A stretch of 64,000 nt of DNA. It comes from a phage. Position numbers and translations under genes: made by a program. The stretch lies in the NCBI GenBank assembly GCA_027262695.1, contig GCA_027262695.1_4722.1; one strand, written 5' to 3'. Below, piece by piece: positions 13,571-57,446 of the stretch (positions are counted from its first letter, which is position 1; the number at the start of each line of letters is the position of its first letter). The notes beneath the pieces were generated by a model. That model was not told where the DNA came from and searched no databases. It saw only the letters and a list, made by a program, of their open reading frames with translations.

Positions 13571-13602
13571 CCCTCCTCCAACCCGTAAGGGAAGGAGGAG
13601 GG
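13571..13602. terminator. bidirectional hairpin CCCTCCTCC-AACCCGTAAGGGAA-GGAGGAGGG
   Basis: Perfect 9-bp outer stem with inner CCC/GGG and GTAA loop between convergent genes. Confidence 0.6.
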
Positions 13603-13608
13603 TTTATG

Positions 13609-14676
13609 TTAACCTAACGTCACTGTCGGTAAATCAGAATAAAGTTTCTTCAATCCTGCCATCGTGGTCGTCGTTGTGTAATTCTTACCCACCACAGCAA
13701 GCGATGCGTATTTCTTACTGCGTGAGAAAAGAGAATAAAACCCACTGGAGGTTTCCATCCACATCGTGAGGCGTTCTGCATCCTTACCGTGGTAATTCGT
13801 TTTACCCCATCCTGGTTTAAACGCATCAGCAAAATCAATTAAACGTGACGCTTCAGCGTCGTATTCTTTAAGGGTGATGTACGACGGTATACGGTAATTA
13901 CGAAACAGCAAAGTAATCAGTTCAGGAACCACGCTACGTGCGCGTTCAGCCGTAATAAGTTCGGTGATAACAGCAGCTGTACGGAAATCGCCGTTCTGTC
14001 CAACGCTACTTAATGACTCTGCTAAAGTGGTTGCCATCGCCACTTTATCTTCCGCTGATCCTGAATCATACAAACTACGCACGTCGATATAGTTGCCCGC
14101 TAATGCAGCTTGACGAATCAACGACGTAACAACAGTTTGGTTCGTCTTGTAGTCGTTATAGCTGAACGACGTACGTTCCTTTCCTTGATCAGAAAGATAC
14201 TGATCAACGATCGTAGACAGTTTGTAATACTCATCGCCAGACATCAGACTGTCGAGAAGTTTTACATTACCCTCTTTATCGATAAGCTTCCCTAGCGCAC
14301 CATTAGACTGTTGGTTGATGGTGCTGTAAATCTGATCTTTGACTTGCGATAAGATGTTATCCGTTGATGTGATATTCAAGCCGGTAACATCTTTGATCTT
14401 ATTCATTAACGCGTTTTCATTCAGCGAGATTTTACCGCCGCTGATGTCGATGAAAGAGTTAAGATCACTGATGGAAATCAGGTTTCCTGTTAACGCTGAT
14501 AATGTACTGTTGATGCTGTTCGTAATACTGCTACGAAAACTGGTTAACGCGTCTGCTGCTGAAACAGCGGTACCGCTAACCGCTTTAAGGAGCGTGTCAC
14601 GCCCGGTTGAAAAATCGCTGGTGATAGTTTTGATCTTGGACGTATCTATACTCGGCAGTTTGTCGTAAAGACTCAT
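13609..14676 (-). CDS. hypothetical protein
   Basis: ORF track 13609..14727; start moved to ATG 14676 (MSLYDKLPSI) with AGGAGGA 4 nt upstream. Confidence 0.6.
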   Translation of the reverse strand: MSLYDKLPSIDTSKIKTITSDFSTGRDTLLKAVSGTAVSAADALTSFRSSITNSINSTLSALTGNLISISDLNSFIDISGGKISLNENALMNKIKDVTGLNITSTDNILSQVKDQIYSTINQQSNGALGKLIDKEGNVKLLDSLMSGDEYYKLSTIVDQYLSDQGKERTSFSYNDYKTNQTVVTSLIRQAALAGNYIDVRSLYDSGSAEDKVAMATTLAESLSSVGQNGDFRTAAVITELITAERARSVVPELITLLFRNYRIPSYITLKEYDAEASRLIDFADAFKPGWGKTNYHGKDAERLTMWMETSSGFYSLFSRSKKYASLAVVGKNYTTTTTMAGLKKLYSDLPTVTLG

Positions 14677-14715
14677 CACGTCCTCCTGAAAAAGAAAAAA
14701 GAAATACGGCATAAA

Positions 14716-14741
14716 GCCTACCCACACAATGGTGGGTAGGC
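14716..14741 (-). terminator. hairpin GCCTACCCAC-acaat-GTGGGTAGGC followed on the minus strand by TTTATGCCGT
   Basis: Stem-loop after stop of 14759..15271; motif at 14706-14715. Confidence 0.55.
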
Positions 14742-14758
14742 TAAGATCAACATCGATG

Positions 14759-15271
14759 TTAAACTTCTTCGTTTTCTGAACCTAATGATTCAGCATCTGG
14801 ATCGTCAACAGGAACGGTTGCATCAAAATACCGCTTCGTATGCGTGGTTGTGTACCCTACGCTATCCGTAATGGAAATCGTAAACGTCACTTCCCTTGCA
14901 CGTATTAAACGCAACTTGTTCATGAAGTTCCGAAAAGGCATGGATCCACGATTCAACTCCTTGATGACGTTTCCTCGAATGCTGGAAATGTCTTTATTCG
15001 TTTTATCGGGATGCCGTTTCTTCACGTCACGCATATGTCGGGTGATATACGAATTGAGCTGATTTGCGCCGATCCCTCTCTCCGTATAAATCTGCAACAA
15101 GAACTCCGTCAGGAAATCCTGTCTACCCGTAGGCGTCCAGAAGTTGTTACCGTGGTTATAGTTAGTCGCTCGTCCTCGATTACTTTGAGGATTTTCATCA
15201 TCGCTTTCGTCACGACGCTTAAGCGGATTAATGCGTGCGCGAAAAGAGACTTCGTTATATTTATCTATCAT
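14759..15271 (-). CDS. hypothetical basic protein
   Basis: ORF track 14759..15316; ATG 15271 overlaps stop of upstream gene in ATGA arrangement. Confidence 0.5.
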   Translation of the reverse strand: MIDKYNEVSFRARINPLKRRDESDDENPQSNRGRATNYNHGNNFWTPTGRQDFLTEFLLQIYTERGIGANQLNSYITRHMRDVKKRHPDKTNKDISSIRGNVIKELNRGSMPFRNFMNKLRLIRAREVTFTISITDSVGYTTTHTKRYFDATVPVDDPDAESLGSENEEV

Positions 15272-15783
15272 AGTACACCAGTGTATTGACTGAGTGCGAA
15301 GGTTAGGAGTTCGCAACAGTCTCTCGCTAGTTTCCTTGTTTTGCGTAATCCATAAGCCGCATCCAAATCGTCACGTTCCGCCAGCGCGTCTAACCACGTC
15401 GCAAGTATGCGTCCATACTCGATAACGTCACGCATGAGAACGTCGAACTGGATAACACGACCATCGGCATCAGCAAGCCAACGATTGAATGTAATTTGTG
15501 GTGCTAATATTGCATAGGTTCTCTCCTCTAATGTTATTATGTTTATGTTGCCTTCGTTATCGAACGCTTGATGCCAACGGCGTAGGTCAAGCATCAACGA
15601 CTCAGCATCCATATACCACAACGGTAAATACGTTTTACGTGCAACACGTATATCGTAGATGTTGTGAACCCAGGACGTTGTTTTATAGAGCAACAAGAGT
15701 TCGTTTAACCGTTGCCTATCATCTTGAAACGTCTTCCTTTTATAACGTTGGAAAGCACGCCTCAAGAAAAAGCGATGTAACAT
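15268..15783 (-). CDS. hypothetical protein
   Basis: 171-aa ORF, first gene of a minus-strand operon. Confidence 0.55.
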   Translation of the reverse strand: MLHRFFLRRAFQRYKRKTFQDDRQRLNELLLLYKTTSWVHNIYDIRVARKTYLPLWYMDAESLMLDLRRWHQAFDNEGNINIITLEERTYAILAPQITFNRWLADADGRVIQFDVLMRDVIEYGRILATWLDALAERDDLDAAYGLRKTRKLARDCCELLTFALSQYTGVL

Positions 15784-15851
15784 GGCATCACCTATGTATC
15801 ATTCTTGCAGGTATCAATGATACCGTCACAAGAAGGTAACGTTTTACGTCG

Positions 15852-15875
15852 CCTCCATGACTGTTATCATGGAGG
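15852..15875. promoter_or_regulatory. inverted repeat CCTCCATGA-n6-TCATGGAGG in divergent promoter region
   Basis: Perfect 9-bp arms between minus gene start (15783) and plus gene start (15918); followed by GGTAATATAG. Confidence 0.35.
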
Positions 15876-15917
15876 TAATATAGTCCTGATATTTTTTTCA
15901 ATACGGAGAATAGAATA

Positions 15918-16532
15918 ATGAGCGAATACGGTGTTGTCCCCGTAGATGATGAACCGCAAGAGGCACCCGATAAATTCGAGGTCCGTCTCGATGAAACTCG
16001 TAACATCCGTCAACGATTTATTCAGCGTCTTGAAATGCTGTTAGATAGCGAATTCAAGGAATTTGAGCATAATCCCGGTGCGGATAATAAAGCCATCGTT
16101 GACGTAGAAAACGTCGACCGAATCGGGAAACTATTGCTGAAATCGTTGGGTGATAATGATAAAGTCGACTTAACGCTGAAACGTATTAGTGCTGACCAGG
16201 CCATGAACGACAGCGCATTGAAAACAGCGCAGGCCCTAACCGAAACCATGCTGCGCCGCTTAGGTCAGATGGATCAACATCCTCTCGCAGCAGGGGCTGT
16301 TTATGATGGCGAAGTCGTGCAACCGGTTACACCGGAAGAGCGCGATCGTCGACTTGGTTTTGCGTCGTTGGAAGAATTCGACAGCAAAGAGTTTTCACCG
16401 GGTATTCTCATCCAGGGACGTGTTGAAGAAACCAGCGATGCTTTTTACGCTAGAATGGCTCAACTGACGGCGTCGGTTCGTGAAGAGGTGTCTCAGCAGA
16501 TGACTGCTGAGGACGCACGCGAGGGGGAATAA
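15918..16532 (+). CDS. hypothetical acidic protein
   Basis: 204-aa ORF; AT-rich upstream region with GGAG. Confidence 0.55.
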   Translation: MSEYGVVPVDDEPQEAPDKFEVRLDETRNIRQRFIQRLEMLLDSEFKEFEHNPGADNKAIVDVENVDRIGKLLLKSLGDNDKVDLTLKRISADQAMNDSALKTAQALTETMLRRLGQMDQHPLAAGAVYDGEVVQPVTPEERDRRLGFASLEEFDSKEFSPGILIQGRVEETSDAFYARMAQLTASVREEVSQQMTAEDAREGE

Positions 16533-17229
16533 AATAACTGAACCATTTTATTCCAAAGAACCGCATGAACATCACGGGTGCGTTAGAAAGTTCAATCGCT
16601 TCGTAAAGTTGATCGTAAGCCAGATCGGAGTCAGGAATGGTTTCGCTGATCCGTCTGGCTACCACCAATACGTTACAAATCGGATTATCTTCCAACAGCA
16701 TTTGATTCGGGAGATGCCAACGTTTGAAATCGTAAAAGAACATCGCGTTATACGTTTTACGGATTTCTGCGGGATGCATCGTCGCCGGATGACGGTAGAT
16801 AATCTCGACGATATCTTGCGCACCGAGATACTGTTGAATACCCTCTTTTAACGCAACAGCTGCATCACCGACAAACTCAAACGGGTATGTGTTGACATGA
16901 ACCGAAAAATCCGGCGATGCGATACCGGTTAATCGATCCTTCATGTAATCCGCAACCACATAACACAACCGCCACATTAACTCCGTAGGAATGCATTTAT
17001 CGAGAATGGTTTCGTCAATATTTGCTAACGCGTTCTTAAACTCCTCGTAGGTGTAGTTTACTCCCGCCTGTTTCTCAGGTTCCAGGTTATAGGGCCTGTA
17101 ATGCCATTTCTTTCCCCACTTCCTGATCGCTTCTGGATCCAACGTTGTCGCTACTGCCATCTCAATGTCGAGCAGCGCTTCGAGTTCGACATAAACCGTA
17201 ACATACGCTGCGCTTTCAATCATCATCAC
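16450..17229 (-). CDS. hypothetical protein
   Basis: 259-aa ORF; 3' end overlaps convergent gene 15918..16532 by 83 nt; 5' end overlaps upstream gene by 4 nt. Confidence 0.5.
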   Translation of the reverse strand: MMMIESAAYVTVYVELEALLDIEMAVATTLDPEAIRKWGKKWHYRPYNLEPEKQAGVNYTYEEFKNALANIDETILDKCIPTELMWRLCYVVADYMKDRLTGIASPDFSVHVNTYPFEFVGDAAVALKEGIQQYLGAQDIVEIIYRHPATMHPAEIRKTYNAMFFYDFKRWHLPNQMLLEDNPICNVLVVARRISETIPDSDLAYDQLYEAIELSNAPVMFMRFFGIKWFSYFIPPRVRPQQSSAETPLHEPTPSVEPF

Positions 17230-17927
17230 TCTCCAGTATTACCCGTTAGCATCTGCGCGTCAGGCGACGTTGCCATTTTCTTCTCGTACTCTTTGGTTTG
17301 TTTGAAGACCAACTCACCGATTTCTTCCAGTTCTTCAACGGTGACGGTATGCAAATAGAGTAGCGGAATAATCCAGGTGTTCGCATTAAGCATGTCGCGG
17401 ATATCATCAACGGATGGGAGTTCGGTAAAGAACTGTTCATCAACTGCGAATAAATCCCGTGCGATGCCGTCAACGAGTTTGTGATTGCTTTCATGGATCC
17501 ATGCGAAACTTTCAGCAAGATGTTCCACGAGCATTTTAATATCATCGTCCGTTGAGAACACCGTACGACGAACATGCGTTGTAAGATCCATCGTGAATCC
17601 CATCAGCGAAGGGGTATCCTCAGAACGGAGTTCGCGCCACAAACGAAGCATGTTTTCAGGGATAAACAAATCATGGATAAAGGTGACACTGAACTTCGTC
17701 ACCCAATCTCGAATCGTCGCGCCTTTCGAATACTGTTGCGGCGGGGAATACAAATACACCCAGCGTTTTGTATACGCGATGACTTCCTTTCGCATCATCG
17801 CATCTAAAACAAGCACATAACGATCGGAAGCAAGTTCTTCCAATAAAAGCTCGAACGCCGTATCGCTTTCTGGAGAGAACGATCGTTTGATCTCTGCAAT
17901 ACGTCGTGATAACGAACTACGTAGCAT
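17226..17927 (-). CDS. hypothetical protein
   Basis: 233-aa ORF in operon. Confidence 0.55.
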   Translation of the reverse strand: MLRSSLSRRIAEIKRSFSPESDTAFELLLEELASDRYVLVLDAMMRKEVIAYTKRWVYLYSPPQQYSKGATIRDWVTKFSVTFIHDLFIPENMLRLWRELRSEDTPSLMGFTMDLTTHVRRTVFSTDDDIKMLVEHLAESFAWIHESNHKLVDGIARDLFAVDEQFFTELPSVDDIRDMLNANTWIIPLLYLHTVTVEELEEIGELVFKQTKEYEKKMATSPDAQMLTGNTGE

Positions 17928-17929
17928 GA

Positions 17930-18604
17930 TTAACCCTCGTCGAGATTATTCTGGAGATGCATTGCGGTGAGAATAACGCCAACTGCTGAAACCGATTTTG
18001 CTTTACTGTCTTCCGGAAGCTGTTCCAGACTTACCGTACCGGTTTCTAACAACATGCGGTTCATCGCGTTGAACTTCTTATCGTCACCACCACGCGCCTG
18101 CATCAACTCTCGGTTTACGTTCGGCATCGACCGTCCTAACGTCGCCTGCATTTCTGGCTGGCTCCACGTTGAGCCTTTACTGCCACCCGTCGGCTGGTTG
18201 GTCAACTGGTCTTTGGTGTTGTTGTTTTTCGGGATCGATATTTTAGCACTCAACGTTTCGGCTTGTCGGCGGTTTGGAATCAGGTACAATCTGGTTGGGC
18301 GGTCACGAAGCACCAATTGCCCTGTTTTCTGGTCGGTGAGATAAATGCGCTGGAAGAAGGGGAAACCGTATTTCTTACCAACTTCCAACGCACGTTTTAT
18401 CGTCACCTCGTTTTTGTTCATGTTGGGTACCCAGATGGGTAGAATCTCTTTCTTATCCCGACATAAACGCATATAGGCATCAAACGTCTCATCATCGATT
18501 TCAGCAAAACGTTTTTTGTAAATAGCGTAAGTCGGGCTAGATTCACCCACCAGGTCTTTGATATACCCAAGAATGAATTTTTCTGCTGCAGCGCGGTTGG
18601 ACAT
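17930..18604 (-). CDS. hypothetical protein
   Basis: 224-aa ORF in operon. Confidence 0.55.
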   Translation of the reverse strand: MSNRAAAEKFILGYIKDLVGESSPTYAIYKKRFAEIDDETFDAYMRLCRDKKEILPIWVPNMNKNEVTIKRALEVGKKYGFPFFQRIYLTDQKTGQLVLRDRPTRLYLIPNRRQAETLSAKISIPKNNNTKDQLTNQPTGGSKGSTWSQPEMQATLGRSMPNVNRELMQARGGDDKKFNAMNRMLLETGTVSLEQLPEDSKAKSVSAVGVILTAMHLQNNLDEG

Positions 18605-18613
18605 AAACGTCTC

Positions 18614-18955
18614 CTATTGTCGTGTCTGTTGCGGAAATACCCGAAACACCTGGACAATGATGTTCTTGTCCTCGCGGTTGGCGATGTCGATCATGTGTTT
18701 TGTTCCAGGACTTTTGAAATCCCAGAACGCAATTAGATGCGTAATGACATCACCCATCCACTCATTGCGTCTGAATCCAGCACCTTTACGATAAGGACCA
18801 TCCCAATCGGCAGGAAACGTGGTGTATTTAAACCCGTAATCCTTCGCGTAGCGGCGCACATGCAAATCAGCACCTGAATGCGCACCGCCAGCAATGAGAT
18901 GAACTTTGTCGTGAGGAAGGTTGTGTAACATCTGGTTCATACGCTTTTCGAACAA
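18614..18955 (-). CDS. DUF2493-like (SLOG/DprA-like Rossmann-fold) protein
   Basis: Motifs HLIAGGAHSGAD, FPADWD, KGAGFRRNEWM, AFWDFKSPGTKHMIDIA match the pattern I recall for DUF2493 proteins. Confidence 0.5.
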   Translation of the reverse strand: MFEKRMNQMLHNLPHDKVHLIAGGAHSGADLHVRRYAKDYGFKYTTFPADWDGPYRKGAGFRRNEWMGDVITHLIAFWDFKSPGTKHMIDIANREDKNIIVQVFRVFPQQTRQ

Positions 18956-19008
18956 GGGATAATCATCCCAGTAGCGTGATCCCGATACCCCTACACGATA
19001 GGGTTCGC

Positions 19009-19329
19009 TTATCTTCCACCGCGCAATGACTTTACGTTGCGTGCAATAAACGGTGCAACGTAGTCGCGGAAATTATGGATCCATCCTTTAATGGGTTGGT
19101 TGTCGAGCAAACATTCTCGTACTGAGAATGTGCTGACTTCTAATACGCCAAACTGCAATCGCCAATAACGGTTAATTTCAGCTTGGGTATGTTCTAATGT
19201 CATGTACTCAGGAACACGAGCCAGCAGGTCGTGTTTAAATTGCTCAGCAATCGCTGGTTGATGTGACGCAATTGTCTGCGTGATAACATCAATCAGTTCA
19301 TGCGCGTGCTTGATAGCAGGTGCTGTCAT
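19009..19329 (-). CDS. hypothetical protein
   Basis: 106-aa ORF in operon. Confidence 0.5.
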   Translation of the reverse strand: MTAPAIKHAHELIDVITQTIASHQPAIAEQFKHDLLARVPEYMTLEHTQAEINRYWRLQFGVLEVSTFSVRECLLDNQPIKGWIHNFRDYVAPFIARNVKSLRGGR

Positions 19330-19341
19330 TTATTTAGCCTT

Positions 19342-20832: not shown

Positions 20833-20930
20833 TGGGTAAAAACTCCTTCGATTCTTCGACTAATTCTTAGTGTTCAGAGAATAACTATTTTTAGTTAAGA
20901 CTGACAACCGCTATTTCCACGAGGACAATC

Positions 20931-21773
20931 ATGCATAAATTTACCATTCCTGAAGACCCGATTACACTGCAGACCCTTTGGGATTCACATCGTGCTCTAT
21001 CAATGGAAGGCTTTGCACAAGACTTCGCTTCACTTACTGCAGTAACGAATCTTCGTAGTATGTTTACTAACGGTAAGAAGTTCGTTACCGATTGGCTTAA
21101 AAAACGTGATGTGACGGTTTATCCTAAAGTCTCCGATGACCTCGATACCATCTTTAGCAACAACGCTTACAGCGATCTCATTGGGTATCGTGCTTTTATT
21201 CCGAATGGTTTAAATGCGCCGATGTCAGATTATGTTGTTGCTTTAACCCAGAGCCTGGATAGCGTAATTGGTACCATCTTGCCCGATTTGGATAAGTTGA
21301 CCGTAACGTGCGCTAAAGCCGTCAACGACGTTAACTTCCGTCGTAGTAGTGGTATGGCTCAAACACTACCTAAAAACGACCCAGAGAACGTTTTAGAGAC
21401 GTTACGTGCGATGTTCAAACGTGGGACGGTAACACAGACCACTGTAGGTCGTGCATATAAGAACGAAGACGATATCCGTCAGATCGGAAAAGATCTGGAT
21501 GTTTCCCGTACCCGTGCGCTCGACGTTAATCCTAAAGACGTGAAGAAAGCAATCGAACGTTTCATGGAGGTGGCTGACCGCTTAACCGAAATCCTGGTTC
21601 AAGATTACAATGAGGGTGCGGTGAGCAACGCAATGATTCGTGATATTAGCGACGCTATCTACCAAACAGCCAAGCAGGCTGAACTGTATGCGTTTCTCGT
21701 GAACGCTTTGGCTGAAGCGATCATCGCATATAACGACACATGGGACGCCGTTAAAAAGAACGCGAAAAAATAA
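20931..21773 (+). CDS. hypothetical protein
   Basis: 280-aa ORF bounded by divergent promoter region and terminator hairpin. Confidence 0.55.
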   Translation: MHKFTIPEDPITLQTLWDSHRALSMEGFAQDFASLTAVTNLRSMFTNGKKFVTDWLKKRDVTVYPKVSDDLDTIFSNNAYSDLIGYRAFIPNGLNAPMSDYVVALTQSLDSVIGTILPDLDKLTVTCAKAVNDVNFRRSSGMAQTLPKNDPENVLETLRAMFKRGTVTQTTVGRAYKNEDDIRQIGKDLDVSRTRALDVNPKDVKKAIERFMEVADRLTEILVQDYNEGAVSNAMIRDISDAIYQTAKQAELYAFLVNALAEAIIAYNDTWDAVKKNAKK

Positions 21774-21781
21774 CATAATAA

Positions 21782-21817
21782 CCCACCCTACTACCCCGTT
21801 AAGGGCGGTAGGGTGGG
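21782..21817. terminator. bidirectional hairpin CCCACCCTAC...GTAGGGTGGG
   Basis: 10-bp stem between convergent genes. Confidence 0.55.
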
Positions 21818-21824
21818 ATAAGGT

Positions 21825-22256: not shown

Positions 22257-22259
22257 TGA

Positions 22260-23786: not shown

Positions 23787-23836
23787 TGTAAACCTCATTA
23801 ATCATTGTCCGTATGATAGCCCAAAGTTGTACGGTA

Positions 23837-24388: not shown

Positions 24389-24442
24389 GCGTGTGTCCTT
24401 GATAGTATGAAATTTCCAATACAACTTAACCGAGGACGTCGA

Positions 24443-25783: not shown

Positions 25784-25785
25784 TT

Positions 25786-26412
25786 ATGGCTGTAACACGC
25801 ATGACGCCAAGTCCCGGTGCGGTCGGGGTATTCACAGTATCAGCGCCGTTCTCCGTTGGTGCATCGACGTTATATACCGTTACAGCGTTGCGAAGATTCA
25901 GCGAAGTCATCGGTAGTGGAATCGATCTATTTACGGAACTATACGAACCGTTATCGATAGACAAATCCACTTTCGAAGCGCATCTTGAAGCAAATGCTTA
26001 TCTCGTCACGTTACAGCCGGATTATGGTGCGCCAGTACTGGTACCAGATACGTATATCACGTCGTACCCAAAGAACGATTCCTTACGGTATCGCCGCATT
26101 ATTCTGGGTATTGATTTCGGGCCTCTTCCTCCCGGTCTTGACCTTTCGTATTTAACAACGATATTGAAAGGTAAAGCCAGTGATATTCTTGGTGTCGAAC
26201 CTGAAGTTAAAACGATGGAAATCACTCTCGATGATACCGTTACTCAGGAACAACATCAGATAAACGAAGCCCGTCGTCAGGCTGCGATAAAAGAGCGAGA
26301 TACCATTTACGCACGCTGTGAAACACAAGAGAAGCAGATAACGGCTTTACTTGCAACCCAAAAGCAACTTATCAAATTGCTTCAAGACGCCGGAATCAAT
26401 CCGACACCTTAA
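25786..26412 (+). CDS. hypothetical protein with C-terminal coiled coil
   Basis: ATG 25786 with GGAGG 6 nt upstream, 3 nt after stop of previous gene. Confidence 0.55.
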   Translation: MAVTRMTPSPGAVGVFTVSAPFSVGASTLYTVTALRRFSEVIGSGIDLFTELYEPLSIDKSTFEAHLEANAYLVTLQPDYGAPVLVPDTYITSYPKNDSLRYRRIILGIDFGPLPPGLDLSYLTTILKGKASDILGVEPEVKTMEITLDDTVTQEQHQINEARRQAAIKERDTIYARCETQEKQITALLATQKQLIKLLQDAGINPTP

Positions 26413-26418
26413 CATATT

Positions 26419-26450
26419 CCCTCCTCCAACCCGTAAGGGAAGGAGGAGGG
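26419..26450. terminator. hairpin CCCTCCTCC-AACCCGTAAGGGAA-GGAGGAGGG followed by TATGCCGT and A12
   Basis: Same hairpin family as 13571; motif at 26452-26459. Confidence 0.6.
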
Positions 26451-26521
26451 CTATGCCGTAAAGCAAAAAAAAAAAATGATAGTCACGAGCCCTCCAATGA
26501 AGGAGAGCCGTGACCGTCAGT

Positions 26522-28238: not shown

Positions 28239-28258
28239 AAGAAAAAACGATATAAAGC

Positions 28259-28284
28259 AAGGTCCTCTGATATCAGAGGACCTT
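28259..28284 (-). terminator. intrinsic terminator: 26-bp perfect palindrome followed by T-rich run on minus strand
   Basis: AAGGTCCTCTGA-TA-TCAGAGGACCTT, then TTTATATCGTTTTTTCTTTTG on the transcribed strand. Confidence 0.65.
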
Positions 28285-28291
28285 GGATCAA

Positions 28292-28979: not shown

Positions 28980-28996
28980 GTAATATAGCCGTGAAA
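28980..28996 (+). promoter_or_regulatory. conserved 17-mer GTAATATAGCCGTGAAA (candidate promoter element)
   Basis: Identical 17-mer recurs at 43715-43731; the 9-nt core GTAATATAG recurs at 15875-15883. Confidence 0.35.
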
Positions 28997-29920: not shown

Positions 29921-29926
29921 TCATCA

Positions 29927-29948
29927 AGCCTGTCCTTCGGGGCAGGCT
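29927..29948 (+). terminator. hairpin AGCCTGTCC-ttcg-GGGCAGGCT followed by TTTTATGCCGTTAAA
   Basis: Stem-loop 6 nt after stop of 29099..29920; T-run then TATGCCGT motif. Confidence 0.6.
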
Positions 29949-30022
29949 TTTATGCCGTTAAATAACTGGAATAAGAATTAACAAAATAGGAAAATGGTGT
30001 GAATATAACACAAAGGAGGGAG

Positions 30023-30150: not shown

Positions 30151-30564
30151 ATGTCTGCATTAGTGTATGACGAGAAATCGTCGAGGCCCCCGTCTTCACG
30201 AGGGCCAACACCTATGCATGATTATTCATCGTCTGTTAAACAAAAGGTTATAAACATGAGCAATTTGAACGTTGAATTTACTTCAACAACGCCTGTCATG
30301 AATGGTGTTGGCACTGAAACCAAAATCGTATTAGAACCCATTCCAGGGTTACGCGATCTCGGTGATTTTTATCAACTGATGCCGCGTATACGGAAGGCCT
30401 TAAACAGTATCGATCTTGATTCTAATAAAGATTTCCAACACGATACAGAAAATACCGATCATGTATTGCTGCCATCAGGGATCGCAAAATTCACCTACAC
30501 GCAAACATTGAAAGCCTCCGATGGTGAAATCCGTCGTTTTATCGTTGAAGTAGAAAGCGCATAA
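30151..30564 (+). CDS. hypothetical protein
   Basis: 137-aa ORF; no SD at 30151 but possible coupling to upstream small ORF; alternative start ATG 30256. Confidence 0.45.
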   Translation: MSALVYDEKSSRPPSSRGPTPMHDYSSSVKQKVINMSNLNVEFTSTTPVMNGVGTETKIVLEPIPGLRDLGDFYQLMPRIRKALNSIDLDSNKDFQHDTENTDHVLLPSGIAKFTYTQTLKASDGEIRRFIVEVESA

Positions 30565-30568
30565 AAAC

Positions 30569-30600
30569 CATCCTCCCGACCCGTAAGGGAAGGGAGGATG
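30569..30600. terminator. hairpin CATCCTCCC-GACCCGTAAGGGAA-GGGAGGATG followed by TATGCCGTTAAA
   Basis: Same family as 13571/26419; motif at 30604-30611. Confidence 0.6.
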
Positions 30601-30617
30601 AAATATGCCGTTAAACG

Positions 30618-37650: not shown

Positions 37651-37684
37651 CCTCCTTCCCCGGCCTGATGGCTAGGGAAGGAGG
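37651..37684. terminator. bidirectional hairpin CCTCCTTCCC...GGGAAGGAGG
   Basis: 10-bp stem between convergent genes. Confidence 0.55.
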
Positions 37685-37699
37685 ATTATGGTTTATTTA

Positions 37700-38556: not shown

Positions 38557-38557
38557 A

Positions 38558-40425: not shown

Positions 40426-40450
40426 AGGAAGGGAAACATATTCCCTTCCT
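40426..40450 (-). terminator. hairpin GGAAGGGAA-acata-TTCCCTTCC
   Basis: 9-bp stem between 40468..40743 and 39951..40403. Confidence 0.4.
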
Positions 40451-41599: not shown

Positions 41600-41644
41600 T
41601 TTAGATCTCTCTTTGTTATCGGTAAAATAAATAACGGCATAAAT

Positions 41645-41660
41645 GGGACATAACTGTCCC
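41645..41660 (-). terminator. hairpin GGGACA-taac-TGTCCC followed on minus strand by TTTATGCCGTTATTTATTTT
   Basis: Between paralog 2 stop and paralog 1 start; motif at 41633-41642. Confidence 0.45.
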
Positions 41661-43627: not shown

Positions 43628-43639
43628 GGATAAAGTTCC

Positions 43640-44075
43640 TTGTTTTCACGTTGTTTGATTAACGTATTGATTTCTGATGATGATAACATCGATATGTTTG
43701 CTGTTATCAAGAAGGTAATATAGCCGTGAAAGGATTTGTATTACAGAAAGGATATTTGTTTTTAAGAAGGGACGATGGTTATCAGGAAGGAGGTTATCGG
43801 TAGGTGTAGGAGAGGGGATTTCAAGGAAGGTTTAAGAGGATAGTTATGTTGTTTAGTTGAGAGTTTGCTAAAATAGCTTTATCGTTATCTTAGTTTATCT
43901 GTGTATTCGTTAGGTATCTTGATTTATCTTCTTAATGATCTTTTCAAAAGTGTTATCATGGTTATCTTAGGTTATGTCTTAATTGTTTTATCTTGGTATG
44001 TTTAAGTTGTTTTAAGTTATCTGTTTATCTATCTTGTTATCTTGTTTAAGTTGTTAATGGCTTATCTTCAAAACA
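43640..44075. repeat. AT-rich non-coding region with purine-rich (A/G)GAAGG repeats (about 43700-43850) and at least 8 TATCTT iterons (about 43880-44070)
   Basis: No credible ORF; copies such as GTTATCTTAG, GGTATCTTGA, TTTATCTTCT, GGTTATCTTAGG, TTTATCTTGG, GCTTATCTTC; TGTTTAAGTTGTT twice. Confidence 0.6.
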
Positions 44076-44085
44076 ATGGATAACA

Positions 44086-44131
44086 TGTGTTTACTACGCT
44101 CGTTGAGTTATAACTCAACGGTAACACATGT
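44086..44131. promoter_or_regulatory. composite palindrome: perfect 20-bp CGTTGAGTTATAACTCAACG flanked by inverted ACATGTGTT / AACACATGT
   Basis: 44101-44120 is its own reverse complement; flanking arms extend the dyad imperfectly. Confidence 0.45.
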
Positions 44132-44535
44132 CATCTGTGCATTACACTACGTTACATGCTTATCAACGTTTTGTGAAGACAAAACGTTCAACTCTAAAAA
44201 ACCATTTGTGATACTCTTCTTCACGTTGTTCATCAGAGTATCTCGTCTATCCTCACTGCGTTCGCATACGACATCACCGTTATACGCTAACGCTACGCTT
44301 ATAGCTTATAACTCTAAGGATAAAAACATAAACTCGCTTCGCTCGTTTAGTTTTTCTTTTTCTTAGAGTTATCATGTTGCTCGTCTCTAAAGGACTTCGC
44401 TCCTCCCCCGTCCCCCGAAGGGGCCGAGGTCGTGGAAATTTTACTTTCCAAATACATTTACAACGTCTGTAAACTTTTACCGACACATACCTAATCTTAT
44501 ATTTAAAATTAGAAAAAGAGAAAATACGAACATAA

Positions 44536-44566
44536 CCCTCCTCCAACCCGGAAGGGAAGGAGGAGG
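44536..44566 (-). terminator. hairpin CCCTCCTCC-AACCCGGAAGGGAA-GGAGGAGG
   Basis: Same family as 13571; after stop of 44585..45478; followed on minus strand by TTATGTTCGTATTTT. Confidence 0.6.
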
Positions 44567-46163: not shown

Positions 46164-46172
46164 TAAGCACGT

Positions 46173-46362: not shown

Positions 46363-46394
46363 CCCCTCCTCATCCGTTATTGGGTGGGGAGGGG
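46363..46394. terminator. bidirectional hairpin CCCCTCCTCATCC...GGGTGGGGAGGGG
   Basis: Between convergent genes 45621..46163 and 46458..47093. Confidence 0.5.
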
Positions 46395-46457
46395 TCTTAT
46401 ACGTCTTTATGCGTTCCGTTCGTTCTGGAGCGTTTTAGAACGGTTTACGACAGGGTT

Positions 46458-47093: not shown

Positions 47094-47185
47094 TAGAACT
47101 CCTCGTTTAGATAACGATTTAGAGGAACAGGAAGGCCCTAGAACGCGATAAACGATTTAAACCAGGCAAACCCTAGATTAAACTT

Positions 47186-47199
47186 TTCGAAGCGTTAGA
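47186..47199. promoter_or_regulatory. perfect palindrome TAGAACGCGTTCTA upstream of endolysin gene
   Basis: Related TAGAACG / CGTTCT words also at about 47138, 46411-46432. Confidence 0.35.
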
Positions 47200-47219
47200 A
47201 CGCGTTCTAGAGCGTGAAA

Positions 47220-49268: not shown

Positions 49269-49281
49269 AACCTGGAGGTCC

Positions 49282-51879: not shown

Positions 51880-51891
51880 TATTCACCTCGA

Positions 51892-52377
51892 TTAAATAGG
51901 CGAGTCGGGTAGCTGACCATCATCGATCTCGATGGTGGCCACCTTACGTGTTGCAGCAAGATGTGATGTACCCTGGATTTTGTTCCAGGTGCCGATACGC
52001 ATGGCGTTTTTGTAGCTGCTATCGCTATCGTTCAGCGTGTAAACAAAACCGCTATCGGTTACGGCAAGATAGATCCAGCCTACAGACTCACTGATGCCTG
52101 ACACGTCCAAAGTTGCTGCTGGCACCGTCCCTACCACCGTGTTGTATTCCGCTGTACCTTGACCAATGCTGATCCGTCCGTTGCTGTAACTGGCTGCTGG
52201 AAGCGTTTTATTTCGACTGAAGAAAAGAAACGGAAGGTAACGCTGGGTAACAAGCGGTGCAAGTTTAGGAGCCACTTCGGTCTTAACGTAGACATCTGTT
52301 TGTGCTGGCGTTACCTCGTGAGGGTTCTTTTGGGTAAGATACGTCCCCCATTCAGAAAGCAGTGTTGATAGCTTCAT
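51892..52377 (-). CDS. small fibre-associated protein with N-terminal NPH-type motif
   Basis: KNPHEVTPAQTDVY near N-terminus; paralog of 52382..52897. Confidence 0.5.
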   Translation of the reverse strand: MKLSTLLSEWGTYLTQKNPHEVTPAQTDVYVKTEVAPKLAPLVTQRYLPFLFFSRNKTLPAASYSNGRISIGQGTAEYNTVVGTVPAATLDVSGISESVGWIYLAVTDSGFVYTLNDSDSSYKNAMRIGTWNKIQGTSHLAATRKVATIEIDDGQLPDSPI

Positions 52378-52381
52378 GCGG

Positions 52382-52897
52382 TTACCCCATGTAACGTTTT
52401 TGGCCGAGGATGAAGACTTTGTTAAATACCACCGAAGTGATTCCTGTTGCGTTACAGCTCACCTGCCCGACGCGAATTGCTGTTGACGTATCGACCCCAG
52501 CACTACTCTGCCAGATCCAATCGATCGATCCGTCTTTCTGACGAATGAAAAGATAACCGGTTTTGTTCGCCCAGTCGGAAGTAAGTTTTTTGATGTCTAG
52601 CGTTCCCTTCGCCAGAATATAGTCGGTACCGGCGATCATGACGGGTATTTCAGGATACGAGATTACCGTACCGCTGGCAGTAACGTTGCTGATGCGTTCG
52701 CTACGAATATCGGTACAGTCACCGAAATACGCTACGGGGAGTATCCCCTTAGGGAGCTTTTTGCCGATTCTCGTATCGATCGTGTTTTTATCGGGTGCGT
52801 CGATTTGCGCTGCGGTGACTTGGTTAGGGTTATCCTTCCTTGCGTACCATGTCGTCATGCGAGCACCCAATTCACTCATTTTTGTGCCCATTTTCAC
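52382..52897 (-). CDS. small fibre-associated protein with N-terminal NPN-type motif
   Basis: KDNPNQVTAAQIDAP near N-terminus; paralog of 51892..52377. Confidence 0.5.
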   Translation of the reverse strand: MKMGTKMSELGARMTTWYARKDNPNQVTAAQIDAPDKNTIDTRIGKKLPKGILPVAYFGDCTDIRSERISNVTASGTVISYPEIPVMIAGTDYILAKGTLDIKKLTSDWANKTGYLFIRQKDGSIDWIWQSSAGVDTSTAIRVGQVSCNATGITSVVFNKVFILGQKRYMG

Positions 52898-52936
52898 ATC
52901 CTATCGAAAAATAAAAAGAAGGAAAGGTGGGTAGAA

Positions 52937-52954
52937 CCCACCCATCCGTTATAA
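52937..52954 (-). terminator. hairpin GGTGGGT-aga-ACCCACC followed by T-rich run on minus strand
   Basis: Overlaps stop of fibre gene 52949..55102; TTCCTTTCCTTCTTTTTATTTTT follows on transcribed strand. Confidence 0.55.
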
Positions 52955-55102
52955 CGTTTCGAAGTCGGTTGCTTTGATAACCGCGTTGAAGTTGGCAAGG
53001 AATTCCTTAAGCAACGCTTGGAAGACATCACGGAACGCCGTGTTCGTCTTCAAACTGGTTAAATAATCGTTCTTAAGGTAATCGCTCAGCTTACCGATCT
53101 TCTGCATCTTCTCGCCGTCTTCGTTCTCTCCAGGTTCTTGGCTGTTGATGTTAACCCATTTGATCCCTTCGAGATCGCCATCGGCAAGGAAGTTAGCGGG
53201 CGTCTCATCGTCGTTCAGGATTTTAATTGTGTCGCTGGATTCAATGCCACCGTAAGCTTCCAGAAGCTGGTTGACTGTTAGCGTGTTGGTGTTGATTGAA
53301 CCATTGACACCATCAATACCGATGCCTGCACCTGTGATGGATGTCGCCGAAAGATCGATCGGCCCGGTTAACTTACCACCGTTGATCGGTAACGCACCAA
53401 CTTGCTCTGCGGTGTGTGTGTGGTTGGCTAACGCCGCAAACGCCGCGATAGACTTATATGTCGAATACGGCGTCATGTACGCTGATTGGTTGGTGTTGTC
53501 AGCGGCTTCAGTATCGGTAGCGACATTAAAGTTCTGCACGTTGCTGAGACCGACCTGCGCCTTCGTTACTTCATGCGGGTTGCTCTTATCGACAACGTGT
53601 GCTGCAAAACCGTCACCGGCTAAAGCGGTGATTGCTGCTTTTGTCGCAGCCGGTGTCATATAGCGGTTGGTTGCTTCACCTGCCTGTGCTTCCGCATCAG
53701 AAGCAACAGGATAGTTCTCAACGCTCCCCAAACCGACCTGAGATTTTGTTACTTGGTGTGGGTTTTCGGTATTCGCGATATGGCTACTGAATCCTTGACC
53801 AGCCAGTTGCTCGATTGCGTAACGAACAAGTATTGGCGTCATGTACTTGTTGTTAACCTGACCATCGATGGCTTCTTGGGTGGTGGCAACCCCGAAGTTT
53901 TGCACGCTCCCCAACCCAACTTGCGCTTTCGTAACAGCGTGGGGGTTATTGGTGTTACCGATGTGATCGGTAACCGTTGGGGTGATTAATCCTGCGATAG
54001 CGGCTGCCGTGGTCGCAGGGGTCATGTATTTATCGTTAGCAACACCCGCAGCAGCTTCTACGTTAGATGCTACACCGTAGTTCAATACATTTCCTAACCC
54101 AACCTGCGCCTTGGTTACCCCGTGGGGGTTGTTCTTGTCTCCGGTATGGGTTGTCAACGTAGCGTTAACGTTATCGATACGCGTGCTTAAGCTATCAGTG
54201 ATTGCTTTGATTGCGGCTCGTACACCCGCTGGTGTTGTGTACAGATCTGTGGCCGTACCGGTAATGGTTGTATTACTATCGGCTACACCGTAGTTCTCAA
54301 CGTTTCCGAGTCCCACCTGGGCTTTCGTTACCTTGTGTGGGTTGTTGTAGTTGCTGATGTGCGCAGCAGCACTATCACCACTCAGGTTAGCGATCATCTT
54401 ACGCGTCATCGCCAACGTCATGTACAGATTTTCACCGATGGTTTCCAGATCGCTCTCGGTCGCCGTTGTGAAGTTCTGCACATTCCCCAATCCAACTTGA
54501 GCCTTGGTTACCCCATGGGGATTATCGCGACGATTCTCGTGCTGCAGCAATGCGGTCATTGCTTTATTGAACCCTTCTTCAAGCGGTTCTTTCAATGATT
54601 CGATTGCAGCCACCACATCGTCCCACGTCATTGTGTCGGTTTCGACATTATGCTGGTGGTTGATTGGCGGGAATACGGAAGGAACGTCGGCAACCTTTTC
54701 CCAGAACGTAACGCGGGGATCGTAAAGGTTGTTGGCTAAAACGTTAAGAATTTGTTGTTGATCAAGTGTAAACTCACCCCCCAGTGAATAGTAGTTCAGT
54801 TGCAACTGTCCACTGAATGCGGTGTCCAACAGCATGATGGAACCGTATAATTCCAGGCCGGTCAGCGCAGCCATGGCACGGAAGGGGTGAGTGCATAAAA
54901 AGTCAACGCCTTCTTCCAGATACGCGTTTGTTTCCGGGTTGTAGATCTTTAATCCATTACGAAAATATGGCGCGTATTTAGGAACGAGAAAGTTAAATCC
55001 GGTCCCCGTGGAAGGACGGACAGTGACGAGTTCTTCTGGAACCCATGCGCCATCCAAATTCCCCTGCGGGTTATACGGAAGGCGTTTAATTTCATCTGTC
55101 AT
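52949..55102 (-). CDS. tail fibre protein with six NPH..TKAQVGLGNV repeats
   Basis: Repeats about 53530-54541, e.g. NRRDNPHGVTKAQVGLGNVQNF, NNPHKVTKAQVGLGNVENY. Confidence 0.7.
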   Translation of the reverse strand: MTDEIKRLPYNPQGNLDGAWVPEELVTVRPSTGTGFNFLVPKYAPYFRNGLKIYNPETNAYLEEGVDFLCTHPFRAMAALTGLELYGSIMLLDTAFSGQLQLNYYSLGGEFTLDQQQILNVLANNLYDPRVTFWEKVADVPSVFPPINHQHNVETDTMTWDDVVAAIESLKEPLEEGFNKAMTALLQHENRRDNPHGVTKAQVGLGNVQNFTTATESDLETIGENLYMTLAMTRKMIANLSGDSAAAHISNYNNPHKVTKAQVGLGNVENYGVADSNTTITGTATDLYTTPAGVRAAIKAITDSLSTRIDNVNATLTTHTGDKNNPHGVTKAQVGLGNVLNYGVASNVEAAAGVANDKYMTPATTAAAIAGLITPTVTDHIGNTNNPHAVTKAQVGLGSVQNFGVATTQEAIDGQVNNKYMTPILVRYAIEQLAGQGFSSHIANTENPHQVTKSQVGLGSVENYPVASDAEAQAGEATNRYMTPAATKAAITALAGDGFAAHVVDKSNPHEVTKAQVGLSNVQNFNVATDTEAADNTNQSAYMTPYSTYKSIAAFAALANHTHTAEQVGALPINGGKLTGPIDLSATSITGAGIGIDGVNGSINTNTLTVNQLLEAYGGIESSDTIKILNDDETPANFLADGDLEGIKWVNINSQEPGENEDGEKMQKIGKLSDYLKNDYLTSLKTNTAFRDVFQALLKEFLANFNAVIKATDFETL

Positions 55103-55133
55103 GATGCGCCCTTTACAAGTTGTTAGTAAGTGT

Positions 55134-55152
55134 GGGATACCCTGGGGTATCC
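55134..55152. promoter_or_regulatory. hairpin GGGATACC-ctg-GGTATCC in divergent promoter region
   Basis: Between minus start 55102 and plus start 55207. Confidence 0.3.
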
Positions 55153-55206
55153 TGTGTTAACAGCGGTAAAATATTACTGTAACTATAAAATAAGGGGGCC
55201 TCTCCC

Positions 55207-56484
55207 ATGTATACATTGGTAAAAACTTACGGATTACCCGTAGGTTCCGGCACGGCCTGGACAGCACTTGAAGCGGGTGAAAGCGTCCTGAGCACGTTGT
55301 TCGCAACGTATCAAAAACTCAATATCCAGGTCCATGAAAGTTATACTGACCAGCAGCAGGTTATCGATCTTTATACGTTTCAATCCGAGCTTCAAAACAG
55401 CAGCGATACGCTTAATGCTTGGCTGAAGGCGAAGTCGGATGCCCACACCAACCTTCGTGGTCAACCGGGTGAACTCTCGATTAAAGCCCACAAGCTCTAT
55501 TGTCACGACGTTATCACGGTAGGCTTTCTTCCTAAAGTCGGTAATAGTGGATATCATCCAAGCAACGCGATTCCTGAATCGGAACGTACCGATATTCTCC
55601 TAACAAAAGCGAACACGAATTACGAGAACATCGGCAAGCACTGCTTGTTCACGGTAGGGGGTTACGTACACCCTCACGTTTACGGTAAGGATGTTGGTGT
55701 TTATATCCAGGGTGGATTCAAGACAGCCCAACGCAGCCAGGAAAACGATATCGGGATGATCGATTTCAGCTGTATCGGAAGTTTGGAGATTCATGCGATC
55801 ACAGAAGACATGATTGCGGATTCCACGAAGCTTTTACCGTACAAAGATGAGATGTATCTGCGCTTACCCCGTAAAGTCGCGGAAGATGAAACGGTCGCAT
55901 TAGTGTTCGGAGGTTACTTACATCTCCTCGATGACTGTTACACGATCGTTAGTGATACGACAGCAAAAATAAACTGCATTAACATGTTCTTGTACGAAAG
56001 GTATTTTCGTTCTCGTGAATATCTTGACTTAACCTCCCTCGGTATTCTCTTGGACGAAGAAAACCCACAATCGGATATTGTTGCGAACCGTTTGCTGTCC
56101 GATAAAGCCTTGAAAGCTTGGGTGACCCATCCATGCAGCTTTTGGGTTTATATCAAAGCAACCTCGATTCAAGTTACGCAAGAACCGCTACCGCGCAGTG
56201 GTGTGCCAGGACAGTATTTCTTAGGCAAGAAACCGGAAGGATTAATTCGCGCGGATCTTGGAGAACTACCTGCGTACGTACAGACTTACGAGAAACCACT
56301 GTGGGTACTTCATTCACGATGGGGACTTCGTAAGAACATGCTGTTTGAAAACACGTTATACAAACACACACGTGTTAAACGCCTCAATGATACACCGTAT
56401 CTCCATCAGGTATGGTTGGAAACGCATGCGACGTTACAAACCGTACACAAGCTGGAACTGATCGATTCCAGTCAGAAAAAATAA
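55207..56484 (+). CDS. hypothetical protein (structural region)
   Basis: 425-aa ORF. Confidence 0.55.
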   Translation: MYTLVKTYGLPVGSGTAWTALEAGESVLSTLFATYQKLNIQVHESYTDQQQVIDLYTFQSELQNSSDTLNAWLKAKSDAHTNLRGQPGELSIKAHKLYCHDVITVGFLPKVGNSGYHPSNAIPESERTDILLTKANTNYENIGKHCLFTVGGYVHPHVYGKDVGVYIQGGFKTAQRSQENDIGMIDFSCIGSLEIHAITEDMIADSTKLLPYKDEMYLRLPRKVAEDETVALVFGGYLHLLDDCYTIVSDTTAKINCINMFLYERYFRSREYLDLTSLGILLDEENPQSDIVANRLLSDKALKAWVTHPCSFWVYIKATSIQVTQEPLPRSGVPGQYFLGKKPEGLIRADLGELPAYVQTYEKPLWVLHSRWGLRKNMLFENTLYKHTRVKRLNDTPYLHQVWLETHATLQTVHKLELIDSSQKK

Positions 56485-56499
56485 ACACGGCAAACATAA

Positions 56500-56531
56500 C
56501 CCTCCTCCAACCCATCAGGGAAGGAGGAGGG
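56500..56531. terminator. hairpin CCCTCCTCC-AACCCATCAGGGAA-GGAGGAGGG followed by TATGCCGT
   Basis: Same family; motif at 56534-56541. Confidence 0.6.
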
Positions 56532-56540
56532 CATATGCCG

Positions 56541-57446
56541 TCAGGCTACGTATAACGTTAGATAACCTTCAATGAGGGTGTTCATTACACTGAGTTGGAG
56601 AACGACAGCTTTACTAACATCCGTACGCACCCCGAACGGTAGCGTTTTGAAGTGCTCTGGATCCGTAATAACTTTCGCGTTTTGTAGGTTAAGCGATCCT
56701 GGTATCGCTGACAATACCCAACGATCGTTAACCGTCAGACCAACGATCTCTTCAGAAAGTCCTAACTTCAGAGTGTTCATTTCTGCAATCAGGGCTTCTG
56801 AATGCGCATCGCCCGATGTTAACGTGTAACCATCGGTTAACGCCGTCAACACCGCATCCGATACGAACCAGTTGTACGATACGATCGCACCTGGTAGCTT
56901 ATCGCTATCCCGATCGATGATGTAGTTAAGACCAGCTAACATGTTGTTACGGATGAGGTTGTTCAGGTCGTTATGACCTGATGTCAACTCAACAAGCAGT
57001 TGACCGACCCAGACTTGGTTACCGGGTTTCGGTGTTATTACAACCTGTATCGGCTGTCGGGATTTGTCCAGATCAGCATCAACGATTTCGGTTTTATTCA
57101 GCAGGATACCGTACGTTGAGGCTAAGACAGGCAATACCTCAGAAACCTTGGTCAGTGTATCTAAGGTTTCGATTTCTATCGGCCAACGATGTTGCCCACC
57201 AGACCAAATACCGAGTTTGCTAAGATCGATACGGTTGTAATAGATGTCGACGGAGTTCACGAGCCCGGAACCCGGTTGTGGGTGCACGGTCAACATACTG
57301 TTGCGTTTGTATCCCGTGCTTTCAGAAGCCTCACCGATAACCAGCTTATCCAGCGTCACACCCCGAGCATCGAAATCGCTATGTTTTCGAATCAGTCGGA
57401 AGAGAATTTCCTTTGATTCTAGCCCCAGGATTTCACTGTACTCCAT
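56541..57446 (-). CDS. structural-region paralog family member C
   Basis: DIYYNRIDL, LASTYGILL, QVWVGQLLV. Confidence 0.55.
   Translation of the reverse strand: MEYSEILGLESKEILFRLIRKHSDFDARGVTLDKLVIGEASESTGYKRNSMLTVHPQPGSGLVNSVDIYYNRIDLSKLGIWSGGQHRWPIEIETLDTLTKVSEVLPVLASTYGILLNKTEIVDADLDKSRQPIQVVITPKPGNQVWVGQLLVELTSGHNDLNNLIRNNMLAGLNYIIDRDSDKLPGAIVSYNWFVSDAVLTALTDGYTLTSGDAHSEALIAEMNTLKLGLSEEIVGLTVNDRWVLSAIPGSLNLQNAKVITDPEHFKTLPFGVRTDVSKAVVLQLSVMNTLIEGYLTLYVA

Follow-up and report, generated by a model that had tools for sequence, protein, structure and literature searches.

A 64,000-nt stretch of phage DNA (contig GCA_027262695.1_4722.1, referred to below as the window) contains a recurrent intergenic module, in which a stable hairpin at the end of a gene is followed on the transcribed strand by a short conserved tail. 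The module is real but represents an already known kind of signal, the phiKZ-type transcription terminator. It is probably the version of the phiKZ/201phi2-1 terminator belonging to the lineage of Escherichia phage vB_EcoM_Goslar, that is, a hairpin-dependent, intrinsic-type terminator in which (T)TATG-YY-G(T) replaces the U-tract. Goslar is a 237-kb nucleus-forming jumbo phage of E. coli (Chimalliviridae), and it was the sole match of a 20-kb stretch of the window, with 92% identity. The whole window is collinear with 209–237 kb and then 1–35 kb of Goslar at 78–95% identity and contains RNA polymerase beta-subunit genes. The identity with Goslar and these genes mark its source as a Chimalliviridae phage with multisubunit polymerases of its own, which is the setting of the phiKZ-type terminators. 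The genus comparison comprised four genomes, including the window, Goslar and the metagenomic sequences IMG/VR 3300011560 and 3300045988_173921. Since none of the genus genomes compared was identical to the window, its phage is a new relative of Goslar at approximately species distance.

Gene-end hairpins and their tails

The octamer TATGCCGT occurs exactly six times in the window, at the positions given by the original prediction, all coordinates of which agreed with the sequence. In the comparison with shuffled sequence, which had been proposed as a check, the copy number of the octamer was marginal (six vs. 1.98 expected, with 3 of 100 shuffles reaching six), while its placement next to hairpins was decisive: each copy begins 1–3 nt past the 3′ end of a stable hairpin, and according to a simple estimate the probability that six random positions are all placed in this way is ~1e-17. 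The degenerate phiKZ tail, TTATKYYGT, which three of the six octamers match in full, was not enriched by count either (nine vs. six expected), and its linkage to hairpins alone was significant. With a perfect-stem hairpin finder, TTAT or TATG was detected at most 8 nt from the stem on 13 of 36 hairpin sides vs. a background of 2.6%. When the tail is defined more loosely, as TATG at most a few bases away from the stem, 14 hairpin sides have one: the six with the octamer and eight others, which carry TATG and a partial YY(G)T. TATG begins directly at the stem or up to 4 nt beyond it, and two additional sides, at 28258 and 46363, have a TATA variant.

The arrangement of the tails follows that of the genes. 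At hairpins located between convergent genes the tail occurs on both strands, thus the DNA reads CATA...hairpin...TATG, which the original prediction had missed and which is explained if one hairpin serves both converging genes. Two-sided tails were found at 13571, 26419, 30568 and 56500, and one-sided tails at 21782, 37651 and 44536. At least one TATG tail is present at seven of the eight convergent junctions, and the eighth has the TATA variant. In contrast, the hairpins between tandem genes (14715, 29926 and 41645) bear the tail on the transcribed strand only.

Forty-four hairpin sides were classified by gene context, where terminator context meant a gene end at most 120 nt upstream on the same strand. 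TATG tails were found on 14 of the 26 sides in terminator context and on none of the 18 sides without a gene ending upstream. The latter included six promoter-only sides, which have no gene end upstream and a co-oriented gene downstream (0/6 with a tail). All 14 TATG tails have a same-strand gene end within 71 nt upstream, while a co-oriented gene lies downstream of only three; each of the other 11 points into a converging gene from its 3′ side or is followed by 900 nt free of any co-oriented gene. No hairpin side with a tail was found in the divergent intergenic (promoter) regions of the window. As the tail is confined to gene-end context and absent from the divergent regions, its distribution is the one to be expected for a terminator and not for a promoter: the module lies downstream of genes on the transcribed strand and is two-sided between convergent genes.

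The stems were examined in a census of all strong hairpins within or adjoining the intergenic DNA of the window. Scans of 44–46-nt segments with an energy threshold were dropped because of excess matches in coding regions at 47% GC, and perfect-stem seeds combined with intergenic context were used instead. The hairpin arm CCCTCCTCC has seven matches on the two strands vs. 0.11 expected, a number that was reached by none of 100 shuffles, and identical 32-mers, CCCTCCTCCAACCCGTAAGGGAAGGAGGAGGG, occupy 13571–13602 and 26419–26450. Of the hairpins described as near-identical (13571, 26419, 44536 and 56500), the copy at 44536 has the loop GGAA and lacks one base of its 3′ arm, and that at 56500 has the loop ATCA in place of GTAA. 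The variant hairpins at 30568–30600 and 37651–37684 were confirmed, and additional members of the family, not recognized previously, were found at 21782–21817, 28258–28285 and 46363–46394. The stems consist of 9 bp, a 2x2 internal loop and 3 bp. Their folding energies lie between −17 and −32 kcal/mol (z-scores between −3.8 and −7.4), except for the short hairpin at 41645, which is weaker (−10.3 kcal/mol, z −2.0).

The observation that most copies lack a canonical U-tract was borne out by a consensus terminator scan requiring at least five T in eight positions, starting 0–2 nt past the stem. Among these hairpins, only 28258–28285, part of 44536–44555, and 52925–52943 passed the scan. Nearly all copies are without a U-tract, and in this respect the module differs from a canonical intrinsic terminator.

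Comparison of the related genomes showed conservation: the copies stand at orthologous junctions, their stems covary, and the tails are mostly kept. Orthologous hairpins of the four genomes maintain pairing through double changes, such as CCCTCCTCC/GGAGGAGGG vs. CCCTCTCCC/GGGAGAGGG at 13571 and CCCTCC vs. CCTTCC at 44536, and further compensatory changes were found at 11374 and 15852. In an alignment of 12 distinct sequences of the 32-nt hairpin family, 5 of the 12 pairs changed on both sides and none on one side only, and 99.3% of the cells were paired. This covariation score was reached by none of 500 shuffles, and no slid register came close to it. The hairpin is under structural selection. 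The tails at 26452, 29951, 30604 and 56534 are kept as TATGCCGT or TATGCTGT, and the base or two separating the stem from TATG vary among the relatives. The conservation of the tails is not due to coding constraint, as the converging reading frames stop short of them or share at most a single stop-codon base with them.

In several hairpins, genomes with ~90% identity have the interior in opposite orientations (e.g., AACCCGTAAGGGAA vs. TTCCCTTACGGGTT). Such flips were seen at 13571, 26419, 30568, 37651, 26482 and 40426, where the flipped segments correspond to 13580–13593, 26428–26441, 30578–30591, 37661–37674, 26495–26500 and 40436–40442 of the window, respectively. The genome groupings conflict between the sites, thus the flips have been recurrent. 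The 2x2 internal loop stays unpaired through them, as AA/AA or TT/TT, and the flips resemble the outcome of template switching or recombination of one stem arm with the other. They show that neither the sequence nor the orientation of the loop is selected. Consequently, the GNRA-type GTAA loop, which had been proposed as a feature of the module, was not upheld: loops vary among the copies as well as between sister genomes. The 13571–13602 and 26419–26450 hairpins are identical to each other, though their Goslar orthologs differ both from each other and from the window, and the window 32-mer is also found at a third locus in Goslar (the ortholog of 56500–56531) and in genome G988, which suggests gene conversion between terminator copies.

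Counterparts in phiKZ, 201phi2-1 and other chimalliviruses

In phiKZ, 61 terminators mapped by Oxford Nanopore cappable sequencing (ONT-cappable-seq) share the motif 5′-BCCYCCCCHWWDGGGRRGGBYTTATKYYGT-3′, in which a TTAT region comes after the hairpin (Putzeys et al., 2024, PMC10914365). That study also described terminator regions acting in both directions between convergent genes, and reported PHIKZ153 as a single-gene transcription unit with mapped start and end (PMC10914365). We confirmed the motif directly in 50 kb of phiKZ DNA (e.g., gccctcccgtaatgggagggcTTATGCTGT). The window module agrees with it in having a stable GC-rich stem-loop with a pyrimidine-rich (C/T) 5′ arm and a purine-rich (G/A) 3′ arm, TTAT(G/T)YYGT right after the stem, a position at gene ends, bidirectional use between convergent genes, origin from the same phage family and, in some cases, orthologous junctions. 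It differs in its longer stems, in the strong preference for G over T at the K position and in the dominance of the CCGT ending.

The terminator motif is shared by 201phi2-1 (motifs A/B), where eight 3′-end positions, those quoted in the main text of the report, were also validated by an in vivo terminator trap (PMC11512511). The sequence hairpin-T(T)TATGYY is present at all eight mapped sites. Its second Y, 7–9 nt past the stem, is where the 3′ end was reported, and at seven of these sites G follows. These mapped ends fix the register, so that the RNA ends with TATGYY and the next template position is the conserved G(T). When transferred to the six octamer copies, this register predicts the 3′ ends listed in Table 1. 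The hairpin + TTTATGYY|G architecture is thus common to the window and 201phi2-1, for which termination in vivo has been shown, while the host (Pseudomonas chlororaphis) and the stem sequences differ and the 201phi2-1 activity was measured with the host polymerase on plasmids. Accumulation of transcript 3′ ends at the motif has accordingly been shown for relatives of the window phage (PMC10914365; PMC11512511).

Similarity to the canonical Rho-independent terminators is also apparent, as these have a GC-rich hairpin at the gene end, weak A/U pairs by the stem and release 7–9 nt past the stem, and in their bidirectional forms one hairpin is common to two converging genes. Unlike the canonical intrinsic terminators, the window module has no U-tract but a specific conserved tail, the distal half of which is GC-rich (GCCG).

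To survey the distribution of the module, an RNase H-like protein alignment was used, which yielded 37 IMG/VR loci, 27 of them (L019–L045) forming the metagenomic chimallivirus set. In this set 27 of 62 TTATKYYGT copies followed a hairpin. For control patterns the figure was 1–3 of 35–38 copies, and in loci outside the chimalliviruses it was 0 of 16. The positions after the hairpin-linked TATG were occupied by Y (74%), Y (76%), G (46%), T and T, and many of the metagenomic copies are wholly palindromic (e.g., TACGGCATAAAAGCTCCAGCGG...CCCTGGAGCTTTTATGCCGTA). Among the named phages, the module was found in phiKZ, 201phi2-1, Erwinia phage Ea35-70, in which one copy occupies the ortholog of the 13571 junction, Ralstonia phage RSF1 and Serratia phage Moabite. 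The terminator signal of phiKZ thus occurs in several phage genera, with Pseudomonas, Escherichia, Erwinia, Ralstonia and Serratia as hosts. A second group of chimalliviruses, made up of Salmonella phage SPN3US, Erwinia phage Huxley, Vibrio phage pVa-21 and, largely, Serratia phage PCH45, has the hairpin followed by YTTTTATTTTT instead. Ea35-70, with the TATGYY tail, and Huxley, with the U-rich tail, both infect Erwinia amylovora, therefore the tail type tracks the phage lineage and not the host. Lineage-specific tails on a shared host are consistent with a polymerase-specific signal, and this split makes termination by these polymerases a tractable comparative question.

Possible mechanism and alternative readings

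A plausible course of events can be outlined for the phiKZ-type terminator. The phage multisubunit RNA polymerases would transcribe to the end of the gene, where the pyrimidine- and purine-rich arms would fold into a very stable hairpin. UUAUGYY, reaching 7–9 nt past the stem, would constitute the last stretch of the RNA:DNA hybrid, with four or five weak A/U pairs by the hairpin, and the transcript would stop at the second Y, directly before the conserved G. Where genes converge, one hairpin could serve both strands. The elemental pause of multisubunit polymerases has the consensus G-10 Y-1 G+1 (PMC6062546, PMC6336406), and we infer that the Y|G junction acts like its Y-1 G+1 part, keeping the polymerase in place as the hairpin frees the RNA. 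The enzyme would then dwell with the hairpin 7–9 nt behind the 3′ end, which is the geometry of intrinsic termination. The mapped 201phi2-1 3′ ends resemble this pause in being a pyrimidine with G next in seven of eight cases, and differ from it in that T-3 G-2 and G-10 are not consistently matched. A more elaborate version, which we regard as doubtful, assigns TATG a role beyond that of a U-tract substitute. The phiKZ non-virion polymerase binds the non-template TATG of late promoters in a pocket of its beta-like subunit (PMC12809450), and a polymerase capturing the tail in the same manner might pause 2 nt beyond TATG, at Y|G, while the hairpin releases the transcript; the contact might even allow re-initiation, and one signal would then act at both ends of the transcription cycle.

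Several points weigh against the terminator interpretation. The match to the pause consensus is limited to Y-1 and G+1, with G-10 in some copies only. Gene-end hairpins without a tail exist at 21782 (+ side), 37651 (− side), 39461, 40426, 46363 (− side) and 11374, hence the tail is not obligatory. The 201phi2-1 terminators also worked with the host polymerase on plasmids (PMC11512511), so the signal may not be specific to the phage polymerase. The 3′ ends obtained by ONT-cappable-seq are accurate only to ~2 nt and do not separate termination from 3′ trimming. Finally, the tail holds TATG, the core of the phiKZ late promoters, and three tails (14706, 29950 and 41634) lie 38–80 nt upstream of a co-oriented gene.

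The last two observations would suit a late promoter or a combined terminator/promoter, where the non-virion RNA polymerase starts at the G of TATG and the hairpin insulates the upstream unit or aids DNA opening. The defining element of the phiKZ late promoters is indeed TATG, the G of which is +1 (Yakunina et al., 2015, PMC4666361), and the beta-like subunit gp123 binds to this tetranucleotide on the non-template strand (PMC12809450), which is the strand that carries TATG in the window tails as well. However, a phiKZ late promoter needs neither hairpin nor YYGT: the model promoter P119L has TATG without either of them, and TATG is all that is conserved in the published logos of late promoters. 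In the window, TATG stands upstream of a co-oriented gene in only 3 of 14 tails and the other tails face no such gene, the hairpin sides of the divergent regions, where promoters must lie, have no tail, and the feature mapped at such sites of 201phi2-1 is a 3′ end. The promoter interpretation was rejected on the basis of gene context and we consider it unlikely. Thus, the original view that the module is associated with termination or processing and is not a promoter is supported by the gene context, the published phiKZ motif and the mapped 201phi2-1 ends. Processing, the other option left by that view, would mean that the 3′ ends are formed post-transcriptionally, with the hairpins stabilizing mRNA against 3′ exonucleases and the AU-rich tail serving as an endonuclease entry site. 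Such processing would fit the great stability of the hairpins, which far exceeds what termination alone requires, and 3′-end sequencing does not distinguish it from termination. Nevertheless, it is quite improbable: trimming to a hairpin would not require nine conserved bases on its 3′ side or leave ends 7–9 nt past the stem, and the cloned 201phi2-1 modules lowered downstream reporter expression in the terminator trap (PMC11512511). The G and T beyond the mapped end are conserved though they are outside the RNA, which argues for a DNA-level signal read by the polymerase, and the different tails of two phage lineages on Erwinia amylovora argue against a host-nuclease site. The paper on ChmC enhanced crosslinking and immunoprecipitation (eCLIP) contains nothing on 3′ hairpins.

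The repetition of the same 32-mer at two loci of the window and a third one of Goslar, together with the flipping interiors, recalls a dispersed mobile or recombining palindrome, similar to repetitive extragenic palindromes (REP) or miniature inverted-repeat transposable elements (MITE), or a protein-binding palindrome, whose gene-end position would be incidental. This is very unlikely, as REP or MITE elements would show non-orthologous insertion and variable presence, while the copies occupy orthologous junctions in the four genus genomes and out to Ea35-70 and phiKZ. Moreover, very different stems carry the same tail, this tail is confined to one strand at tandem genes and occurs on both sides at convergent ones alone, and neither terminal repeats nor target duplications were found. 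It also seemed worth considering that GGAGG of the 3′ arm and ATG of the tail form a ribosome-binding site and start codon of tiny open reading frames, the spacing between them being 4–7 nt in several copies. This idea, which is hardly credible, was rejected, since the frames (2, 3, 6, 9 and 19 codons) are not conserved in length and the G is not invariant, with T or A replacing it in the tails of phiKZ and in some tails of the Goslar group (TTATT, TTATA); in addition, GGAGG would be locked in a −25 kcal/mol hairpin.

Probable terminator copies and neighbouring features of the window

Considered as phiKZ-type terminators, the modules give transcription-unit ends for about a dozen junctions of the window, with 3′ ends predicted at the nucleotide level (Table 1), and they could serve as compact bidirectional terminators for engineering. 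Six of the hairpins listed are already putative terminators in the Goslar record. Among nucleus-forming jumbo phages, Goslar serves as the model for E. coli, and the literature searched yielded no transcript map for it.

Table 1. Hairpin modules of the window with their tails, predicted RNA 3′ ends and counterparts in related phages
Feature	Coordinates	Strand	Tail and predicted 3′ end	Hairpin and gene context	Relatives
Bidirectional terminator hairpin, convergent genes	13571..13602	both	+ TTTATGTTA 13603–13611; − TTCTATGCGGCG 13570 down to 13559	+ gene ends 13554, − gene ends 13609; −31.6 kcal/mol, z −5.9	compensatory stem changes vs. Goslar; positional ortholog in Erwinia phage Ea35-70 carries tctatgccgtc
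Unidirectional terminator	14706..14742	−	TTATGCCGT 14714 down to 14706; predicted RNA 3′ end ~14708 (−)	hairpin 14715–14742, z −4.9; next gene begins 38 nt downstream	identical in 4/4 genus genomes
Hairpin, convergent genes	21770..21817	both	− TTATTATGTTAT; + tail without TATG	hairpin 21782–21817	putative terminator in Goslar record; positional ortholog of phiKZ bidirectional module between PHIKZ153 and PHIKZ154
Bidirectional hairpin	26409..26459	both	+ CTATGCCGT, predicted 3′ end ~26457; − AATATGTTAA	hairpin 26419–26450, z −5.1	tail kept as TTATGCCGT/C; hairpin interior inverted
Canonical intrinsic terminator	26466..26514	−	T12 tract	hairpin 26482–26514; gene ends 26522; tandem to 26419 module	
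Terminator hairpin	28247..28285	−	variant CTTTATATCGTTTTTT, TATA for TATG	hairpin 28258–28285	annotated as terminator in Goslar
Unidirectional terminator	29926..29958	+	TTATGCCGT, predicted 3′ end ~29956	hairpin 29926–29949	carry TTATGCTGT; annotated as terminator in Goslar
Bidirectional hairpin	30556..30611	both	+ AAATATGCCGT, predicted 3′ end ~30609; − TTTTTATGCGCT	hairpin 30568–30600, z −7.4	interior inverted in genome G988
Hairpin, convergent genes	37651..37693	both	+ ATTATGGTT; − side TTGTGTTGC, no TATG	hairpin 37651–37684	TTATA in + tail; terminator annotation in Goslar
Short hairpin	41634..41660	−	ATTTATGCCGT; predicted 3′ end ~41636	hairpin 41645–41660, weak, z −2.0	within segment absent from Goslar, present in G988
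Hairpin	44526..44566	downstream of − gene ending 44585	− TTATGTTCGT; + side without motif	hairpin 44536–44566	compensatory change CCCTCC/GGAGGG to CCTTCC/GGAAGG
CCCCTCCTC-type hairpin, convergent genes	46363..46405	both	+ side variant TCTTATACGTC	hairpin 46363–46394	annotated as terminator in Goslar
Bidirectional hairpin	56487..56541	both	+ CATATGCCGT, predicted 3′ end ~56539; − TTATGTTTGCCGT	hairpin 56500–56531, z −5.8	carry AATATGCTGT; annotated as terminator in Goslar

The segment 40753–42531 of the window is missing from Goslar and IMG/VR 3300011560 and present in 3300045988_173921. It holds two − strand genes and its own terminator (41634–41660) with a perfect TTATGCCGT tail. The A/T homopolymer at 26466–26481, located between the tandem terminators, differs in length in the four genomes (12–17 bases), and the Goslar GenBank record begins and ends at this junction.

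Some further elements were observed outside the terminator modules. The sequence GGTAATATAG(C/T)C(G/C)TG occurs in three copies on the + strand (15875–15883, 28980–28988 and 43715–43723), all of them in divergent intergenic regions, and the copy at 15875 is kept in all four genomes. It is a candidate for the AT-rich early (virion polymerase) promoter of the Goslar lineage; its 9-mer, with one mismatch allowed, showed no overall enrichment in the window. At 43628–44535 approximately 900 nt are without a convincing gene. Direct repeats of GTTATCTTAG / TTATCT-type units are dense at 43880–44060, and this stretch aligns poorly to Goslar. The 43628–44535 region may be regulatory, act as an origin or specify non-coding RNA. 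The Rfam scan of the window assigned no family to the hairpins and gave a group I intron as its sole match (RF00028, 58.4 bits, full-length match). This intron, at 2605–3037 on the − strand, separates segments of the virion RNA polymerase beta-subunit gene and is annotated in the Goslar record, too.

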